This document shows, in pieces, positions 1-30,458 of a DNA stretch of 64,000 nucleotides. The notes under the pieces are model-generated. The model saw only the letters and a program-made list of their open reading frames with translations, ran no database searches and was not told the origin of the DNA. The position numbers were made by a program, and so were the translations under genes. This DNA comes from Candidatus Omnitrophota bacterium. Its GTDB lineage: Bacteria > Omnitrophota > Gorgyraeia > Gygaellales > Profunditerraquicolaceae. The stretch is taken from positions 19,696 to 83,695 of the forward strand of contig CAWDSS010000010.1 in NCBI GenBank assembly GCA_963805065.1, given 5' to 3'. Each line of letters starts with the position of its first letter. The first letter of the stretch is position 1.

Positions 1-1988
1 TTCTCGGCATCCTTTAAATTATCAATTTCCGCGTATAATTCTCCGATCATGTCATTATCGCTTATGATGCTGGGCAGGTTCCCTTGCGCCTCATCTATCT
101 TTAAGCCCTTAAAATAACACTGCAAGGCCTTCTGGTATTCTTTTTCGTATAAATATATCTCGCCCAGATTAAAGTAGTTGTCGCTTAATTCGTTCTTTAG
201 CTTAAGCCCTTGAAAGATATTTTGGCTTTTCTTATAAAATTCTTTTGCGCTGGCAAAATCTTCTTTGTTTACGAATACCAGGCCAATATCAAAAAAATCG
301 CAAGCCAGATTATACCTGTAAGCCGGGATATTCTTTCTTTCCTGGTTTATTTGCGAGCTTTTAGTCAATAATTCCAGTGCTTTGTCGTAATCTTCTTTGT
401 CAGTAAACCAGACTGCTAATCTCCTTAATGCTATTGCCTCATTCAATTTATCCTTATTAAGCCTACTTAAAACTATTGCCTTGTTATAAAATTCCTGCGC
501 CTTCTGATATTCTCCCTGGCTGTGATATATTTTACCTATCCCGATATACGCAGAGGCAAGGCCTGCTTTCTTGTTATTTTTCTCGCAGTAAAAGGCATAC
601 TCAAAATAGCATTTCAGCGCCTCTTCAGGTTTACCCAGCCTTTGATACGTATCGGAAAGCATCATGTAAGCTTCCTGAAATGCGGGCTCCTTCTTTATAA
701 TCTCTTTACACCGTAAGACTACCTCCTGATTAGCTCCTTCCTGAAATAGATGCTGGGTTTTCGCAAATAAAAAATAGCTGTTGGGATTTAGGGTAGGTAA
801 TTTGACATAAGCAAAAACACTCAGCGAGATTATAGATACCGTTAATATAAAGGGAATTATGAGTTTTTTGAAAGTTAAGCGTGATTTTGATTCAGGTAAT
901 ACCGGTTGAATATTTTTAGTTTTGAATAATGCAAAATTTGGGTCTCCGTACAAAAGATAATTTGTCCAGGGGATAGTTTCCTGGCCGTACTGCTTGATAA
1001 GGCGCAGGCGGCTTAAGCGTATGCTTTCCCCAACAGATCTTCCGGATATAAGATGCGTATAGAATTCTGCGGAAAAAGCCAGGCTTACAGTGTCTTCAAT
1101 CTTACAAATCGCTCCTATGTAGTGCCTGACTCCCGAAAACAAGAATGCCGATGCGAGACTATAATTTTTTCTCTGGTAATCTTCATCGATTAAATCTGCG
1201 CGGGATTCGGCTGAATGGCAGGAATTGGAAAATATCAGTGACGGGAAAGCAGCAGTTGAACCCATGGCAAGGATATCCGAAGTGCTAAACTTACCGTCAT
1301 TTAGAACCCAGCCGGTATTTTCCGGAGATCCATAATCGTATTCGCAATGCCCCGCGAAATGTACTATATCATAGTCACGCAAATTCTTTTTTACATATAG
1401 CTTGTCTATAGAAGTAGATTTAAAATCGATACTGATGTATTTACGCTTCTGGTCGAACTGCTTTCTTATGGACGTACCTTCCAGGTATGCTGATTTTAAG
1501 TCATTCGTAGGATTAGCCAATATCAGCATCTTAGGAACGCCTGAAGCGCTGCGGTATTGCGGCACGCTAACTTGTTCTTTTGTCCTGATTAGGCGGCCGA
1601 GATTAAACTGGAGGCAGAGAAAATTATTCCCGTCATAAAGCAGTTCCCAGGGAATATTCACCAATTCTTCATCAAGCGAGAGTATTAAATCCGAAATTTG
1701 CGCGTGCTTTAATCTTTCCTTTATGGGCCTGGTCAACAATTGATCCCACAAAAGCTGGCCTGTTTTTTGCAGGTTTTTTATTAAGCCGGGATTTGAATCG
1801 CATCCCTTACCGGCCTTATTCAGTATATTTACAACTTCCAGGCAGAGCTTATTTATTTCAGGTTGAGAAACCTCACACTGGCTATAATGCCTTAGAGTAG
1901 ACACAAAGTCACACTTTTCAAACAGGCTCATCTTTAATGTCGAGTCCTGCTTTAATATCTCAAGCACTAAGGCATTCGAACTTTGCAT
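1..1988 (-). CDS. CHAT-domain (caspase-like) protease with one TM helix and C-terminal TPR repeats; 3' end runs off the window
   Basis: Absent from the ORF track because there is no stop in the window. Hand translation from ATG at 1988 gives MQSSNALVLEILKQD.... His/Cys dyad motifs IVHFAGHCEY and LIFSNSCHSAE. Hydrophobic segment LIIPFILTVSIISLSVFAYV. TPR-like repeats (YFNLGEIYLYEKEYQKALQCYFKGL) stay in frame down to position 3. Confidence 0.75.
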   Translation of the reverse strand, partial: MQSSNALVLEILKQDSTLKMSLFEKCDFVSTLRHYSQCEVSQPEINKLCLEVVNILNKAGKGCDSNPGLIKNLQKTGQLLWDQLLTRPIKERLKHAQISDLILSLDEELVNIPWELLYDGNNFLCLQFNLGRLIRTKEQVSVPQYRSASGVPKMLILANPTNDLKSAYLEGTSIRKQFDQKRKYISIDFKSTSIDKLYVKKNLRDYDIVHFAGHCEYDYGSPENTGWVLNDGKFSTSDILAMGSTAAFPSLIFSNSCHSAESRADLIDEDYQRKNYSLASAFLFSGVRHYIGAICKIEDTVSLAFSAEFYTHLISGRSVGESIRLSRLRLIKQYGQETIPWTNYLLYGDPNFALFKTKNIQPVLPESKSRLTFKKLIIPFILTVSIISLSVFAYVKLPTLNPNSYFLFAKTQHLFQEGANQEVVLRCKEIIKKEPAFQEAYMMLSDTYQRLGKPEEALKCYFEYAFYCEKNNKKAGLASAYIGIGKIYHSQGEYQKAQEFYNKAIVLSRLNKDKLNEAIALRRLAVWFTDKEDYDKALELLTKSSQINQERKNIPAYRYNLACDFFDIGLVFVNKEDFASAKEFYKKSQNIFQGLKLKNELSDNYFNLGEIYLYEKEYQKALQCYFKGLKIDEAQGNLPSIISDNDMIGELYAEIDNLKDAE

Positions 1989-1999
1989 CTTTTTTTACG

Positions 2000-2704
2000 T
2001 CAAGCCCTCATATCCAGTAATATCGTTGCCACTTTGTTTTCTACAGTGGATATTTCCACCGTATATTTGCCGATTGAGACATGCTCAAAAATAACCGTTC
2101 CGGAATCGGTAATATAGGATTCCAGCTCCAGCCCTTCTTTTATCAGCGCTACCCTTAAATCTTTAATGGTTTCCTGAGTTTGCTTTCGCCTGATTAGAAT
2201 ATTTAAATTAAAAACCTTGCCGCCTTTATTTTCTATCCTCGCTTCTACCCTGATATCCTTAAAATCCTTTAAGATGGTTACTTCGTCTTTGAAATCTTTT
2301 ATAGAGCGGCTGCGAAGGATCGGCGCAGGCACCAATTCCAAACCCACAAGGACATCTCCGGTTGTATTAATCATTTCCAATAACTTTTCTTTCATACTTA
2401 AAATTATTTCCAGAACGCAAGATTCATCGCTAGAGACAAGCAAGCCTTTTATCCTCTTAAGTATCTCCTCGGGTACCTCTTTCATTTCTTTGCCTTCCAA
2501 GGTGAGGTTTAATGCCAATACCTCTGCACAGGCTTCACAGCTAATAAGGTGCTCTTTTATCAAATCAGCCTCTACCTCTGTTAATTTACCTTCCATAAAA
2601 CAGGCTAAGGCCTCTTCATCCGGATGTTCGCTTGTACCATGGAAGCTCTCTGCTTTCCATCGCCTATAAACTAACTTAATCAGCTTCTCTGCTTTATCCT
2701 GCAT
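2000..2704 (-). CDS. anti-sigma factor, zf-HC2 type, no predicted TM (soluble)
   Basis: H-x3-C-x2-C motif (EHLISCEACAEVL). Lies directly downstream of the ECF sigma gene. No hydrophobic helix seen. The stop is 11 nt before the CHAT gene start. Confidence 0.7.
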   Translation of the reverse strand: MQDKAEKLIKLVYRRWKAESFHGTSEHPDEEALACFMEGKLTEVEADLIKEHLISCEACAEVLALNLTLEGKEMKEVPEEILKRIKGLLVSSDESCVLEIILSMKEKLLEMINTTGDVLVGLELVPAPILRSRSIKDFKDEVTILKDFKDIRVEARIENKGGKVFNLNILIRRKQTQETIKDLRVALIKEGLELESYITDSGTVIFEHVSIGKYTVEISTVENKVATILLDMRA

Positions 2705-2739
2705 ATTATTCCTCTCCTAATATAATAGACGAAAAACAC

Positions 2740-3345
2740 TCATGAATCTAACAGGAAACCTTTGGCTTTAAAACACTCCTTCAGCCGAAAAATTAGCCGT
2801 GATTTGCGCACGTCTACCGCCTGGCGTGAAATGTTCATTATGCGCCTGACTTCCTCAAGGCTTAAGCCCTGGTTTATATTAAGCTCTACAAAGAACTTGT
2901 CTTCATTATTTAATTTGGCAATACAGTCTTTTAAAAGTGCTAGCTTCTCTTTTTCGCTGAGCACTTCGTTGATGGAAGCAGCTCCGTCGACAAGCATTTC
3001 TTGGATGCTAGAGCCGTTATCTTGTTCTTCATCAATGGAAAGAACGTATTTTACCTTTCGCAAATGGTCAATCGTAAAATTAATTGTGACCTGGCGCAGC
3101 CAGCTGGCGAGGCTGCAGCCGTTTCTTGCCTTAAAGCTTTTTAATTTCCTGCAACCGTCATCAATTAAGGAACAGAAAATTTGCTGGAAAATATCGCTGA
3201 CTTGATCCTGTGTCAATACAGCGCCTTTAGAATTTAGGACGTTATGGATATAACTGTATATAAGGCGGGAATACCTGGTCAAGAATTCATCCTGTGCCTG
3301 TTTGTCGCCTTTGACAAACTTCTGGACAAATTCCAGGTCGTTCAT
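2740..3345 (-). CDS. ECF-type RNA polymerase sigma-70 factor
   Basis: Region 2-like (FLTRYSRLIYSYIHNVL) and region 4 HTH-like (GLSLEEVRRIMNISRQAVDVRKSRLIFRLK) segments. About 200 aa. Confidence 0.85.
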   Translation of the reverse strand: MNDLEFVQKFVKGDKQAQDEFLTRYSRLIYSYIHNVLNSKGAVLTQDQVSDIFQQIFCSLIDDGCRKLKSFKARNGCSLASWLRQVTINFTIDHLRKVKYVLSIDEEQDNGSSIQEMLVDGAASINEVLSEKEKLALLKDCIAKLNNEDKFFVELNINQGLSLEEVRRIMNISRQAVDVRKSRLIFRLKECFKAKGFLLDS

Positions 3346-3380
3346 AGTTTAATTATATAACTAAATCAAAAGAAAATAAA

Positions 3381-3395
3381 GTAGAAAAAAGTCAA
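3381..3395 (+). promoter_or_regulatory. 15-nt motif GTAGAAAAAAGTCAA, copy 1 (reads this way on the + strand)
   Basis: Exact 15-mer, also present as its reverse complement at 28119-28133 and 32452-32466. Located between the thioesterase terminator and the ECF sigma start. Confidence 0.4.
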
Positions 3396-3399
3396 AAAA

Positions 3400-3433
3400 G
3401 GGACACCCTTCCGATTGAATTCAAGGGTGTCCC
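3400..3433 (-). terminator. hairpin GGGACACCCTT...AAGGGTGTCCC followed by a T-run on the minus strand (family A repeat)
   Basis: 11-bp perfect arms at 3400-3410 and 3423-3433. The minus strand continues TTTTTTGAC. Sits immediately after the stop of the 3437-3814 gene. Confidence 0.6.
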
Positions 3434-3436
3434 TGG

Positions 3437-3814
3437 CTAAGAGAGCTTTTCTTTAACTTCCTGCGGAATGGCCTTGGGCTTAAAATTCTTATCTATACAA
3501 ACCAAAACTGTTTTTGCCAGGCAAATTGTTAATCTAGCCTGGTTTTTTATCTTATAATCAAAATTGATGCGCACGCCTGAAACATCGGCTATCCTGGTAT
3601 CGATTTCCAGGATATCTCCATAACAAGCGGGTAACTTATAATCTATTTCCTGGCGGGCAACTGCAAAAAGCGTGCCGGATTTGGCAAGATCCTTTACTGA
3701 TACTCCACGCTCTGCCAGATATTCGGTGCGGGCCTCCTCAAGGAATTTAAGGTAATTCGCATAATAGACAACCCCTCCGCAGTCGGTATGATGATAATAA
3801 ATTTTTATTTTCAT
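3437..3814 (-). CDS. acyl-CoA thioesterase, 4HBT/YbgC-like
   Basis: N-terminus YYHHTDCGGVVYYANYLKFLEEARTEYL is typical of the hotdog-fold YbgC/FadM family. About 125 aa. Confidence 0.8.
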   Translation of the reverse strand: MKIKIYYHHTDCGGVVYYANYLKFLEEARTEYLAERGVSVKDLAKSGTLFAVARQEIDYKLPACYGDILEIDTRIADVSGVRINFDYKIKNQARLTICLAKTVLVCIDKNFKPKAIPQEVKEKLS

Positions 3815-3825
3815 CTCAGGAGGGA

Positions 3826-4233
3826 TTATTTATTGAAAGCTACGAGCGCCTTTTCGTTATTGCTGGTAGAAATTATTAGTTTTGCAGGGCATCCCCCAGC
3901 GCATACGCTTCCGTAAACCTGCTTGATGTCTAAATCCTCGGCAGCCAATTTTACGCTGATTAGCTTAAGGGCGCCGGGTTTATTTTCCAGTTCTATAATT
4001 ATCACTTCGTTTTCTTTTAGCGATTTATAACCCTTCTTTTTCAATGCATCGGCAGCACGGACATTGTCTTCCGTAACCAGCATTATTTTTGCTTCATTGC
4101 CCACTGCATAACCTGCAACGCCGACAATATTAATGTCATGGTCCGCCAGCAACTTAGATATATCAGCCAGAATGCCTATATTATTTATTACTGTTACGGT
4201 TATTTCCTTGCCTAATTGAACTGACTTAATCAT
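3826..4233 (-). CDS. ACT-domain protein (tandem ACT)
   Basis: Two small ligand-binding-like repeats (ITVTVINNIGILADISKLLADHDINI and IIIELENKPGALKLISVKLAAEDLDI). Confidence 0.65.
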   Translation of the reverse strand: MIKSVQLGKEITVTVINNIGILADISKLLADHDINIVGVAGYAVGNEAKIMLVTEDNVRAADALKKKGYKSLKENEVIIIELENKPGALKLISVKLAAEDLDIKQVYGSVCAGGCPAKLIISTSNNEKALVAFNK

Positions 4234-4320
4234 CTTAACCCTCCTTAATTTTCCCGCGCTTTGCGGTTGGAAAATTAATCCCGAGCAACAAGTTATTAGT
4301 GCCTGTTGCGAGGGATGCGA

Positions 4321-5070
4321 TTAAATTGAGGAAAGAATAATTTTACTGATAAGGCAAAACTCCAGGTAATTAAAATTCACGGGCTTGACAATATAATCAT
4401 AGACTCCCAATTGCATTGCCTGCTCGGCTATGTTTGTATCAGCCATGCCGGTAATTACTATAATACCGATTCCGCTTCCTATTTCTTTTATCTTCTTTAA
4501 TGTCATAAGCCCGTCCATACCCGGCATATTGATATCCAAAAGCACTATGGCAGGATTTTCCTGTTTTATTTTTTCTAATGCCGCTTCGCCGCTATTGGCA
4601 ACGCTGGTTTTAAAGCCCTTTTTGGTCAGGAAATCATTGAGCAGCGAACAAACCTCCGGCTCATCATCAGCTATTAAAATGCGTTTTTTCTCTTCGCTGA
4701 ATTCCAGGTTTTCTTCCAGCAGCGAATTTACGATTTTTGAGATGGTAAGCACACCCCAGGATTTTCTCATAAGTCCGGTTGCGCCGTTCAGGCGTGCCTG
4801 CCTGTCTAATTCCGAATCCTCCAGTGCCGTAAGCATGATAATTTTGGTTTTGCTATCAAATTCCCTTATTCTTCTTAAAGTCTCTATTCCGTCTATTGTC
4901 TGCATCTTGATATCTAGCAATACCAGATCAAGCTTTTCTTTCTTTAATATTTCGATGCCTTCTTCCCCTCCGGGAGCGGTGATTATTTTATAGCCCCTTA
5001 GGGAAAAAAGTTCATAAAACATCTCTCTTATTTTTAATTCATCATCAACCAGCAGGATTTTCTTTTCCAT
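4321..5070 (-). CDS. response regulator with two receiver (REC) domains, no output domain
   Basis: KILLVDDE...LVLLDIKM and RILIADDE...IVLLDINMPGMDG receiver signatures. Confidence 0.85.
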   Translation of the reverse strand: MEKKILLVDDELKIREMFYELFSLRGYKIITAPGGEEGIEILKKEKLDLVLLDIKMQTIDGIETLRRIREFDSKTKIIMLTALEDSELDRQARLNGATGLMRKSWGVLTISKIVNSLLEENLEFSEEKKRILIADDEPEVCSLLNDFLTKKGFKTSVANSGEAALEKIKQENPAIVLLDINMPGMDGLMTLKKIKEIGSGIGIIVITGMADTNIAEQAMQLGVYDYIVKPVNFNYLEFCLISKIILSSI

Positions 5071-25965: not shown

Positions 25966-26039
25966 GGGACACCCTTAAATTCAATCGGGAGGATGTCCCT
26001 ATTTGGGGACACCTTTTGCTTTGGAATCAAGGGTGTCCC
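25966..26039. repeat. two tandem family A hairpins (GGGACACC...GGGTGTCCC)
   Basis: 25966-25999 and 26006-26039. They share GAAT(T)CAAGGGTGTCCC with the 3400-3433 hairpin, one of them in inverted orientation. Confidence 0.55.
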
Positions 26040-28901: not shown

Positions 28902-29402
28902 TTATTGCGTTTTGGCAGGGCAAGGTTTAGATGAACCTTTTCTTTTTTCTAACCATTTTTGCAGGCGTTCTTTTTTGGCTTCATTACGCTTCTCTGCCAT
29001 CTGCTGAAAACTAGCAAACTGTTCAGGCGTAAGTATCTGCTTTACGGCAAAAATACCGTTGACCCTCTGATCAATGAGCTTTGCCTGCAGGGTTTTTATT
29101 TCTTTGACAATTGGCTCAACTGTAGCCCTGGAAACCTTGGGGTCCTTCAGCGCTTCCTGTAACTTAGCCTGTTTCTCCCTTATACCCGACAATAACTGCG
29201 TCATCTCCTGACTCTGAGCCTTGCGATTATCTGATAATTTTTGCTGCTGTTCAGGTGTCAAATTTAAGCCTTCAAAAATCTGCCCTTTGGATCCCTCAGG
29301 ACATTTTTTTGCCTCGCGTGGTGCCGGCATCTGGGCAAAACCTATGCTTACCGCAAGAAAAACTACTGCTAAAGTTATCAATGTTAATTTTGTTTTTTTC
29401 AT
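28902..29402 (-). CDS. periplasmic Spy/CpxP/ZraP-like protein (LTxxQ motifs)
   Basis: Signal peptide and two LTPEQ motifs (LNLTPEQQQKL, ILTPEQFASF). Confidence 0.7.
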   Translation of the reverse strand: MKKTKLTLITLAVVFLAVSIGFAQMPAPREAKKCPEGSKGQIFEGLNLTPEQQQKLSDNRKAQSQEMTQLLSGIREKQAKLQEALKDPKVSRATVEPIVKEIKTLQAKLIDQRVNGIFAVKQILTPEQFASFQQMAEKRNEAKKERLQKWLEKRKGSSKPCPAKTQ

Positions 29403-29452
29403 CTCCTTCTCCTTTCACTTGCTTAGACATATACACATCGAGAAAAGTTCCT

Positions 29453-29905
29453 CTAAAGAAAATATTCTTCTACGTTTGTACCCAGATTCAATAGTAAATC
29501 CTGACTGTCCTGGCTCAATAAATACTCAGTGATACTTTCATCTTTTGCTGTTTTGCCTGCCGAATGCTTCTGAATTATTATGCCGGCAAAATATGCAATG
29601 AAGATTACTAATGCCATAGCACTTGCCAAAGCAAATACCGGCCGTGTCCTAAAATGGATTACCCTGCTTTCCTTAGCTAATCTCTCCTCAATAATTGCAT
29701 TACGGATATTATGCCAAAGGCCTTGCGGCACATTTCGCTGTTTTGCGTTTTTAAATAGCAGGTGCTGAATTTGCAATTCTCTCTCCAAGTTACGGCAAAG
29801 GCTGCATTGTCTTAAGTGTTCTTTAATATACTGTTCTTCTGCCTGGTTAAGCATTCCGTCTAAATAATCGGTCTTGAGTAATTCCTGGATTCTAACACAG
29901 CGCAT
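29453..29905 (-). CDS. membrane anti-sigma factor, zf-HC2 type
   Basis: EHLRQCSLCRNLE (H-x3-C-x2-C) and one TM (FALASAMALVIFIAYFAGIII). Overlaps the sigma gene by 14 nt. Confidence 0.7.
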   Translation of the reverse strand: MRCVRIQELLKTDYLDGMLNQAEEQYIKEHLRQCSLCRNLERELQIQHLLFKNAKQRNVPQGLWHNIRNAIIEERLAKESRVIHFRTRPVFALASAMALVIFIAYFAGIIIQKHSAGKTAKDESITEYLLSQDSQDLLLNLGTNVEEYFL

Positions 29906-30458
29906 TTTTCACCAACCCCTTTCTTGCCTGAACTAAGAGGGCTTCACGAGCCCGTTTTAACCGGGACCGCACGGTATTTATGGGAATGCTCAAAGCCAAA
30001 GCAATTTCCTGATAACTCAATCCTTCAATCTCCCGTAATACTAAACATGCCTTAAATTCTGGATTTAACGAGCCTAATAAAGTATTAAGTCTGGTTTCAT
30101 TATCGCCCTGTGAAACCTGTTCAATGGTTCTATTTTCTGCAGCCAAAGATTCACTGACAGTGTCATAGCCTAACCTGTCTTTTTCTTCTCTTGTAGTTTT
30201 TCGATAACGGTTAATTGCAGTATTGACCGTAATCCTGTAAACCCAGGTTTTAAATGCCGAGCGGAACTGGAAATTCTTTAAGTTGTGATAAATCTTCATA
30301 AAAACATCCTGCGTAACTTCTTGGGCATCGGCACTGTTATGAGTAATCCTAAGGGCAACGTTGTAAACGAAAGTGCTGGCTGATTTATAAATCTGCTCAA
30401 AGGCATCAATATCCCCTTTAGAGGCACGTATGAGTATGTCTATATTGATATTCTCCAT
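29892..30458 (-). CDS. ECF-type RNA polymerase sigma-70 factor
   Basis: Region 2 (AQEVTQDVFMKIYHNLKNF) and region 4 (GLSYQEIALALSIPINTVRSRLKRAREAL). Confidence 0.85.
   Translation of the reverse strand: MENINIDILIRASKGDIDAFEQIYKSASTFVYNVALRITHNSADAQEVTQDVFMKIYHNLKNFQFRSAFKTWVYRITVNTAINRYRKTTREEKDRLGYDTVSESLAAENRTIEQVSQGDNETRLNTLLGSLNPEFKACLVLREIEGLSYQEIALALSIPINTVRSRLKRAREALLVQARKGLVKNALC

Follow-up and report, generated by a model that had tools for sequence, protein, structure and literature searches.

A soluble anti-sigma candidate and a membrane CHAT-TPR protein form a conserved three-gene unit with an extracytoplasmic function sigma factor in Omnitrophota

We analyzed a stretch of 64,000 nucleotides (nt) from Candidatus Omnitrophota bacterium (GenBank assembly GCA_963805065.1, contig CAWDSS010000010.1, positions 19,696 to 83,695), hereafter called the window. 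At its left end lie three genes, the trio of this report, which encode a sigma factor of the extracytoplasmic function (ECF) type, a soluble anti-sigma candidate, and a membrane protein consisting of a CHAT caspase-like domain, one transmembrane (TM) helix and a TPR region. An initial annotation, made from the letters alone, had described three co-directional genes with gaps of 35 and 11 nt and had suggested that the CHAT protease releases the sigma factor by cleaving the anti-sigma factor. The coordinates of the minus-strand genes agree with this layout, the gaps lying at 2739..2705 between the sigma and anti-sigma genes and at 1999..1989 between the anti-sigma and CHAT genes, and the observation on the trio was confirmed in every particular. 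The CHAT-TPR protein, seen only in part before, was recovered in full (736 amino acids, aa) from a second assembly of the same sequence (locus L001). What had been overlooked is an ECF-type promoter of the anti-sigma and CHAT genes, located inside the end of the sigma gene. The genes of the trio are as follows.

2740..3345, minus strand: ECF (group IV) sigma factor gene, 201 aa, matching TIGR02937 and Sigma70_r2
2000..2704, minus strand: soluble anti-sigma candidate gene, 234 aa, matching zf-HC2
1..1988, minus strand: CHAT-TM-TPR gene, first 662 of 736 aa in the window, running off its left end

Proteins of the trio

The sigma factor scored 73 bits against the NCBIfam model TIGR02937 (sigma70-ECF; cut-off 42.9), which places it in ECF group IV and bears out its first assignment, and 26.7 bits against Pfam Sigma70_r2 (cut-off 24). 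The region-4 models stayed under their cut-off (16.8 versus 25.7). Its nearest solved structure in a search of the PDB was SigW (5wuq, E = 6e-5). Over the trio as a whole, Pfam and NCBIfam support all three domain assignments (sigma factor, zf-HC2, and CHAT with TPR), that of zf-HC2 marginally.

The anti-sigma candidate has a single Pfam match, zf-HC2 (PF13490), at 23.1 bits versus a cut-off of 22.2. This assignment is marginal by score, but the zinc ligands are invariant in 41 orthologues. The following features of the protein are considered below.

2528..2626, minus strand: zinc-ligand motif H27-x24-H52-x3-C56-x2-C59, invariant in 41 orthologues
2231..2371, minus strand: most conserved stretch, aa 112-158, NTTGDVLVG.ELVPAP.LRSRSIKDFKDEVTILKDFKDIRVE, a candidate docking or cleavage segment

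Position 27 is a cysteine in distant relatives (CPDEE), and C35 is nearly invariant. The class I zinc-binding anti-sigma (ZAS) motif (H/C-x23-26-H-x3-C-x2-C), N-terminal and encoded by a gene next to that of a sigma factor, is found in this 234-aa protein. No TM-like segment was detected (mean maximum Kyte-Doolittle value over 19 residues, 1.08), as expected of the soluble protein described at first. The family comprises 515 members, nearly all of about 234 aa and mostly annotated as hypothetical; the best NCBIfam match, a weak one, is ChrR. Column identity was 0.91-0.93 at aa 121-150, which read GLELVPAPILRSRSIKDFKDEVTILKDFKD in the protein of the window, versus 0.66 at the zinc motif. In an AlphaFold2 (AF2) model with a mean predicted local distance difference test (pLDDT) score of 63, helices occupy aa 2-115 and a beta-sandwich aa 140-234 (pLDDT 79-87), while the score is below 50 at aa 87-132, taking in much of the conserved segment. 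Given its high conservation and the low confidence of the monomer model, the segment may be one that is ordered only on a partner, which makes it a candidate docking or cleavage site. A fold search of the PDB with the anti-sigma model returned generic Ig-like, GAE and Fn3 beta-sandwiches, none at E<=0.001, and gave no functional lead. When the anti-sigma profile was compared with the PDB, the sole match to an anti-sigma factor was the ZAS domain (ZASD) of DdvA (8rlz_A), which was not significant (E = 0.3).

The CHAT domain was matched over the entire Pfam model (PF12770, E = 1.8e-32, 113 bits, cut-off 24). The protein is laid out as follows.

942..1769, minus strand: CHAT caspase-like domain, aa 74-349, PF12770
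1349..1347 (His214) and 1220..1218 (Cys257), minus strand: catalytic dyad, invariant in orthologues
804..863, minus strand: single TM helix, aa 376-395, Kyte-Doolittle maximum 2.3
1..785, minus strand: TPR region, from aa 402 on, with about ten repeats when the protein is complete, predicted extracytoplasmic

The His/Cys dyad is intact, as had been noted: the motifs HFAGH (aa 210-214) and NSCHS (aa 255-259) are present, and H210, G213, H214 and C257 are invariant in two sets of orthologues (30 and 35). The one TM helix placed between CHAT and TPR corresponds to the hydrophobic segment at about aa 376-395, and several Pfam TPR families scored above cut-off from aa 414 on. In the AF2 model, strands (aa 6-39) and helices (aa 42-94) lie ahead of a low-confidence CHAT core, and the TPR helices (aa 402-731) have a pLDDT above 90. 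The least conserved part of the protein is the juxtamembrane linker, aa 350-375. No signal peptide was found, and lysine and arginine residues flanking the TM helix averaged 5.4 on the N-terminal side versus 1.5 on the C-terminal side (30 orthologues). This excess indicates an N-in orientation, and the CHAT domain is accordingly predicted to be cytoplasmic and the TPR region extracytoplasmic. In the predicted orientation, CHAT could reach the soluble anti-sigma protein.

At least 1125 homologues of the CHAT-TM-TPR protein were found at E<=1e-5, the named ones from Candidatus Omnitrophota. The best 120 are all about 733 aa long and share 57-76% identity over the full length, TPR included. A sequence search of the PDB with the full-length profile was swamped by TPR proteins, and one with the CHAT-only profile gave marginal matches (8tl0, E = 0.02; DdvA, 8rot_B, E = 0.23).

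Linkage of the three genes and their promoters

To be of one system, the genes should keep company in other genomes, and a lack of such co-occurrence had been named at the outset as a point that would speak against the idea. In a scan of one genome per species, relatives were found in 163 genomes, and 80 loci (numbered with the prefix L; Candidatus Omnitrophota) were kept. An anti-sigma homologue lies directly upstream of the CHAT gene in 76 of the 76 loci with upstream DNA, and a sigma gene (43-60% identity) upstream of the anti-sigma gene in 73 of the 73 loci reaching far enough. The order and strand of the trio are identical in every informative locus. Such conservation is far beyond that of a chance neighbourhood, and the trio appears to be a fixed part of Omnitrophota genomes.

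The linkage extends to distant relatives. With the cytoplasmic module (aa 1-370) as the query, phmmer returned from the full library 10,184 clusters (50% identity) at E<=1e-3, of which 706 reach E<=1e-30; the documented taxa of the relatives are Omnitrophota and Nitrospinota only. The best 150 relatives all span roughly aa 5-355 at 34-62% identity, and the N-terminal region ahead of the CHAT core is conserved in all of them. A TM-like segment follows within 140 aa of the CHAT module in 148 of 152 family representatives. The part beyond this segment varies and can be TPR, CsgG/LpoB-like or trypsin S1C, and in about a fifth of the relatives a class III adenylate cyclase or CHASE2 domain is present at the N-terminus. 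When the context of eight distant relatives (CHAT 34-47% identical) was inspected, sigma and anti-sigma homologues adjoined in seven, including a Nitrospinota CHAT-trypsin protein and a cyclase-CHAT protein. Identity is 29-32% for these sigma factors and 21-33% for the anti-sigma proteins, whose best pairs align over aa 6-233. In L082 the gene order is altered to CHAT, sigma, anti-sigma. In L083, L085, L086, L087 and L089 the anti-sigma stop overlaps the CHAT start; with these overlaps in five relatives and the 11-nt gap in the window, the two genes are probably translationally coupled.

By its presence in distant relatives, the link between CHAT and the sigma/anti-sigma pair is old, and it has outlasted swaps of the sensor domain and of gene order. 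The N-terminal region plus CHAT would be a constant transducer and the outer domain the variable part, accompanied by an anti-sigma protein without a sensor domain. The relatives also bear on topology. Cyclase domains, which need ATP, are fused N-terminally without an intervening TM segment, which independently supports a cytoplasmic CHAT, and the replacement of TPR by trypsin S1C or CsgG/LpoB domains of periplasmic type supports the outside location of TPR. N-terminal extensions of about 230 aa were considered as possible anti-sigma-CHAT fusions and rejected, as they are class III adenylate cyclase or CHASE2 domains; none of 166 representatives joins sigma or anti-sigma to CHAT.

As a separate observation, class III adenylate cyclase is located directly N-terminal of the CHAT module in P0271, P0273, P0277, P0278, P0288 and P0306, with TM and TPR or CsgG-like parts after it. 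The only cyclase-CHAT context examined, that of P0392 (locus L085; in the 90%-identity cluster of P0271), has sigma and anti-sigma genes adjoining. This suggests that such a fusion may combine cyclic AMP and proteolytic outputs.

Three transcription signals were found around the sigma gene.

3394..3433, minus strand: intrinsic terminator belonging to the 4HBT thioesterase gene upstream, with the stem GGGACACCC/GGGTGTCCC and then a T-run, the inner part called by a terminator scan
3352..3357, minus strand: sigma-70-type -10 hexamer TATAAT, 6 nt before the sigma ATG, the window copy without TG
2723..2752, minus strand: ECF-type promoter GTTAGA-N15-CGTCTATTA (GTTAGA at 2752..2747, CGTCTATTA at 2731..2723), 19 nt upstream of the anti-sigma ATG

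With a terminator upstream, the sigma gene is insulated from upstream transcription, and many other loci have a comparable hairpin upstream of sigma. Of 70 loci, 63 have a -10-like hexamer 4-10 nt before the sigma start, and in 55 of these it carries the TG extension. Shine-Dalgarno-like motifs precede the sigma gene in only 3 of 70 loci, and none is present in the window (3343-3357). The closeness of the -10 element to the start and the missing Shine-Dalgarno motif point to a sigma mRNA that is probably leaderless, transcribed from a housekeeping promoter. An autoregulatory ECF-type promoter was sought upstream of the sigma gene, and a housekeeping-type extended -10 was found instead. From these signals the sigma gene appears to be transcribed by the housekeeping sigma factor and not to be autoregulated.

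The ECF-type promoter, by contrast with this element, serves the other two genes: it overlaps the last sigma codons and the stop and is followed by a Shine-Dalgarno motif and the anti-sigma ATG. Its extended form is GTTAGATT-N13-(G/A)CGTCTATTA, also written GTTAGATT-N13-GCGTCTATTA. The promoter pattern, searched as a regular expression, occurs once in 64 kilobases (kb) versus 0.13 expected, and with a weight matrix the site scores 48.6, no other site in the 64 kb reaching 12. In its exact form the motif is found ahead of the anti-sigma gene in 63 of 74 loci, and the motif also lies there in the distant relatives L082, L086 and L087. Spacing between GTTAGA and CGTC is 15 nt in 113 of 119 sites. 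ECF promoters are usually assigned by a CGTC-containing -10 element with fixed spacing in the operon of the sigma factor itself, and on this ground the motif is taken as the target of this sigma factor. GTTAGA-N15-CGTCTATTA would thus be its promoter, in a circuit in which sigma is constitutive and both inhibitor and protease are under sigma control.

The motif has a second regular place. In 40 of 49 loci it stands before a gene whose product is a secreted BNR/Sortilin-Vps10-like beta-propeller (about 520 aa), and this is so at whatever distance downstream of CHAT the BNR gene lies, with gaps of 76-4640 nt. In the genome of the window, a copy is 76 nt past the CHAT stop and is followed by a Shine-Dalgarno motif and an ATG (L001:6022-6046). 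The BNR protein (e.g., L005:8394-9950), whose gene is loosely linked to the CHAT gene, has a C-terminal coiled-coil-like tail; in L085 it is fused to a FadL/Toluene_X porin. It could be a periplasmic partner of the TPR domain.

Further observations concern mobile or structured elements at these sites. Six loci also have the motif ahead of an IS200-type Y1 transposase-like gene. This gene resembles those of transposases associated with repetitive extragenic palindromes (REP), or RAYT (Pfam Y1_Tnp, 1.7e-17), has a Shine-Dalgarno motif, and is divergent from sigma in L002, L009, L019, L028 and L041; the remaining example is L056:8347-9027. The terminator stem GGGACACCC/GGGTGTCCC recurs at 25966-26039 of the window and is identical across many Omnitrophota species, e.g., in L002, L004, L005, L007, L009, L019, L028, L052, L062 and L068; it may be a REP-like element and could connect to the RAYT-like genes. 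An insert of 60-100 nt with hairpin potential, (A)AGTGAGG(G/C)CAC..., lies between the ECF promoter and the Shine-Dalgarno motif of the anti-sigma or BNR gene in L006, L007, L014, L026, L035, L036, L038, L040, L041, L045, L048, L050, L054 and L079; it may represent either a structured leader or else a mobile insert of small size.

Upstream of the trio, the window encodes a 4HBT thioesterase, an ACT-domain protein and a double-receiver-domain protein without an output domain (3437-5070, minus strand). In other genomes the 4HBT gene often lies a few kb or less from the trio, at distances that vary. The window also holds a second, canonical ECF module (28902-30458, minus strand), so that the trio is not the only ECF system of this genome.

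30458..29892, minus strand: second-module sigma factor, 188 aa
29905..29453, minus strand: second-module single-TM zinc-binding anti-sigma factor, 150 aa
29402..28902, minus strand: second-module secreted LTxxQ/Spy-CpxP-like protein, 166 aa

Comparison with known systems

The closest mechanistic precedent for the proposed cleavage is Craspase, in which Csx29 cleaves Csx30 and relieves the inhibition of CASP-sigma (PMC10028731). There, as proposed here, a CHAT protease cuts the soluble inhibitor of an ECF-type sigma factor. However, Craspase is cytoplasmic, is activated by Cas7-11 with target RNA and has TPR N-terminal of CHAT, whereas the CHAT protein of the trio spans the membrane. Neither a CRISPR array nor CRISPR-like repeats were found in the 64-kb window, the sigma factor scored 33.4 bits against NCBIfam CAS_III-E_sigma (NF041236; cut-off 100), and for the ZAS anti-sigma protein the searches made detected no match to Csx30. 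The trio therefore differs from type III-E Craspase on every defining feature tested, and the CRISPR-independent setting supposed at first is upheld. The domain order had been called inverted relative to the usual TPR-CHAT arrangement. This holds against Csx29, separase and DdvA, but the order is the same in HetF, the founding CHAT protein (PMC8406250, Fig. 4A legend).

That CHAT or caspase proteases may stand upstream of ECF sigma factors outside CRISPR is not new (PMC11506125, PMC8195603, PMC8999054). In DdvA/DdvS of Myxococcus xanthus (PMC11506125), an ECF sigma factor is under a zinc-binding anti-sigma domain linked to TPR, a CHAT His-Cys dyad and one TM helix, and the CHAT domain is proposed to be a signal-activated protease. 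DdvA is, however, one polypeptide in the order ZASD-TM-periplasmic TPR-CHAT, with CHAT in the periplasm; the trio has a separate soluble anti-sigma protein with a beta-sandwich tail, a CHAT domain predicted to be cytoplasmic and TPR alone outside, and so is not of the DdvA type. Similarity between the two CHAT domains is negligible (8rot_B, E = 0.23). DdvA-like proteins are reported in several Myxococcota species and one Comamonas species (PMC11506125).

Kaur, Burroughs, Iyer and Aravind (2021, PMC8195603) report EACC2-caspase proteins encoded beside ECF sigma and DUF1822/TRADD-N genes and propose that a stimulus activates the peptidase and thereby ECF-driven transcription. The likeness to the trio lies in a constant N-terminal alpha+beta domain with a caspase, a variable C-terminus (repeats, trypsin-like peptidases, TM-linked sensors) and an ECF sigma neighbour, and the trio's CHAT domain and the EACC2-caspases may belong to the same caspase superfamily. 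The third partner differs: it is TRADD-N plus TPR (DUF1822) in the EACC2 systems, known mainly from cyanobacterial examples, and ZAS plus a beta-sandwich in the trio. No DUF1822 match was found in the third trio gene (Pfam), nor a DUF1822 gene in the neighbourhoods fetched.

Three more systems resemble the trio in part. HetF of Anabaena (PMC8406250) shares the CHAT-TM-TPR order and is a membrane protein with one TM segment, but it is a divisome component that binds FtsI, with no sigma or anti-sigma partner reported; the CHAT protein of the trio scored 22.4 bits against NCBIfam HetF (NF045509; cut-off 1200) and is no orthologue. CalpL-CalpT-CalpS is a three-part effector of a SAVED-Lon protease, the anti-sigma factor CalpT and the sigma factor CalpS (10.1101/2024.05.08.593097), and so likewise joins a protease, a soluble anti-sigma factor and a sigma factor that is ECF-like; CalpL, however, is a Lon-SAVED fusion of type III CRISPR activated by cyclic oligoadenylate, neither CHAT nor membrane-bound. 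In ECF54, CHAT-domain proteins are conserved neighbours and proteolysis is proposed as the means of control (PMC8999054 section 3.3; PMC7826278), but this group is described as actinobacterial and without an anti-sigma factor (PMC7826278, PMC8999054), whereas the trio has an anti-sigma candidate. The main text of the ECF classification paper makes no mention of CHAT or Omnitrophota. No description of a ZAS-containing trio, of its promoter or of its occurrence in Omnitrophota was found in the literature searched.

A proposed transmembrane switch and its rivals

The hypothesis that the membrane CHAT protease frees the sigma factor is plausible and is now better founded. We propose that the CHAT protein senses through its outer domain and inactivates the anti-sigma factor, probably by cutting its most conserved segment, and we give this explanation a probability of about 0.5. 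The sigma gene would be constitutive from its housekeeping-type extended -10, probably as a leaderless mRNA, and the product would be held in check by the soluble 234-aa protein through a zinc-binding domain at the N-terminus. This protein, without a sensor of its own, would dock through its central segment and C-terminal beta-sandwich on the N-terminal alpha+beta region plus CHAT. A cue outside the cytoplasmic membrane would act on the TPR domain and activate the cytoplasmic caspase-like domain, which would cut the anti-sigma factor, most likely at aa 112-140, leaving a sigma-bound fragment to be cleared by general proteases. The freed sigma factor would then bring RNA polymerase to GTTAGA-N15-CGTCTATTA promoters. 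Sigma-driven re-expression of the anti-sigma factor and the protease would reset the switch by negative feedback, and the secreted BNR beta-propeller would be turned on as well. In this scheme, we infer the binding of sigma by the anti-sigma factor, its docking on CHAT, its cleavage and the nature of the signal.

Given the variable outer sensor, the constant protease module, the sensor-less anti-sigma factor, the coupling of their genes and their shared autoregulation, the CHAT protein is best understood as the transmembrane input to the anti-sigma factor. Given the invariant dyad, cleavage would be the most economical mode of action.

Several points weigh against this explanation. The cleavage of the anti-sigma factor and the contacts between the proteins are inferred only, and transcription from the promoter of the sigma factor itself is equally expected of a regulon member. 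The AF2 model is poor in the CHAT core (pLDDT 30-50 at aa 132-300), which makes the active-site geometry and the specificity pocket unreadable, and the low-confidence segment of the anti-sigma model may belong to the beta-sandwich, missed through a shallow alignment. On the 7-kb contig of L088, the eighth distant relative (CHASE2-CHAT), no sigma or anti-sigma gene was seen, and a TPR-CHAT gene adjoins. ZAS anti-sigma factors can respond to oxidants by themselves. Finally, DdvA is the only studied anti-sigma factor that bears CHAT, and mutating its dyad gave no phenotype in the conditions tested (PMC11506125).

The synteny, coupling and topology would be the same if the CHAT-TM-TPR protein regulated sigma without cutting the anti-sigma factor, either by membrane tethering with release through conformational change or partner switching, or by self-cleavage as the switch. 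Stimulus-induced autopeptidase activation has been proposed for caspases beside ECF sigma factors (Kaur et al., PMC8195603), DdvA is proposed to self-cleave in trans (PMC11506125), and the conserved beta-sandwich of the anti-sigma protein is of a generic protein-binding type. We nevertheless consider this explanation unlikely: an invariant His/Cys dyad in so large a family argues for catalysis and not for scaffolding alone, and in the linker at aa 350-375, where the protein is least conserved, no conserved site for self-cleavage is evident.

The CHAT-TM-TPR protein might instead be an output of the sigma factor, a HetF-like membrane protease whose targets are proteins of the envelope or of division, while the ZAS protein senses by itself, through thiol oxidation as in RsrA or through its C-terminal domain as in ChrR. 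Its gene lies downstream of the sigma-dependent promoter, as that of a regulon member would, and HetF, with the same domain order, works in the divisome with FtsI (PMC8406250). The invariant ZAS ligands, the nearly invariant C35 and the weak ChrR match suit a self-sensing anti-sigma factor, and the high conservation of the entire protein, TPR included, suits a housekeeping role. Such an output protein, however, would leave unexplained why CHAT stays linked to sigma and anti-sigma through swaps of the outer domain and changes of gene order, and why anti-sigma stop and CHAT start codons overlap; with a HetF score of 22 bits against 1200 besides, it also seems improbable.

The trio might also be a caspase-ECF system of anti-phage or conflict type: a cue from an invader would activate the protease, and sigma would turn on defence genes. 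Craspase, DdvA/DdvS and the EACC2-caspase systems have been interpreted in this way (PMC10028731, PMC11506125, PMC8195603), and it would suit the island-like neighbours of some distant relatives (in L082 a NERD-helicase; in L087 ThsB_TIR and LexA/ImuB-like genes; in L086 a SLFN/UvrD-like helicase that follows a promoter-motif copy). For Omnitrophota, however, we rate it very unlikely, since PADLOC gave no matches beyond weak TPR ones, the three proteins are strongly conserved with fixed length and synteny across 80 genomes, and the neighbours are of housekeeping type (thioesterase, ACT-domain protein, thioredoxin, pta-ackA), while the conserved target is a secreted beta-propeller and no known effector.

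If the CHAT protein does act by cutting the anti-sigma factor, a broader picture can be drawn, which we offer tentatively as possible but not to be counted on. The trio would stand for a widespread class of one-step transmembrane proteolytic signalling, in which an outside ligand switches on the cytoplasmic caspase-like domain of a single-pass receptor; this domain would directly cut a soluble ZAS anti-sigma factor and free the ECF sigma factor without regulated intramembrane proteolysis. Sigma would re-express its inhibitor, the protease and the secreted beta-propeller, which may feed back on TPR. The system would be a core regulator of Omnitrophota, reused elsewhere with trypsin, CsgG/LpoB-like and cyclase domains.

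ECF sigma factors are among the main bacterial signalling systems. They are known to be released through regulated intramembrane proteolysis, through a change of conformation or redox state in the anti-sigma factor, and through partner switching, phosphorylation and C-terminal extensions. The removal of a soluble anti-sigma factor by the cytoplasmic caspase-like domain of the membrane receptor itself would, if true, be a further mechanism, and a CRISPR-independent relative of Craspase logic. New here are the conserved ECF-type promoter driving the anti-sigma and CHAT genes, its copy before the BNR gene, and the extended -10 of the sigma gene. The parts for a direct test in E. coli are in hand: three genes, the catalytic residues, a candidate cleavage segment, a cognate promoter and a conserved target gene. 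The CHAT-module family is large (the 706 clusters at E<=1e-30), with no description in the literature searched, and Omnitrophota is a phylum in which few members are cultured and little is known of regulation. In these bacteria, the module is probably an uncharacterised route from an outside signal to gene expression.

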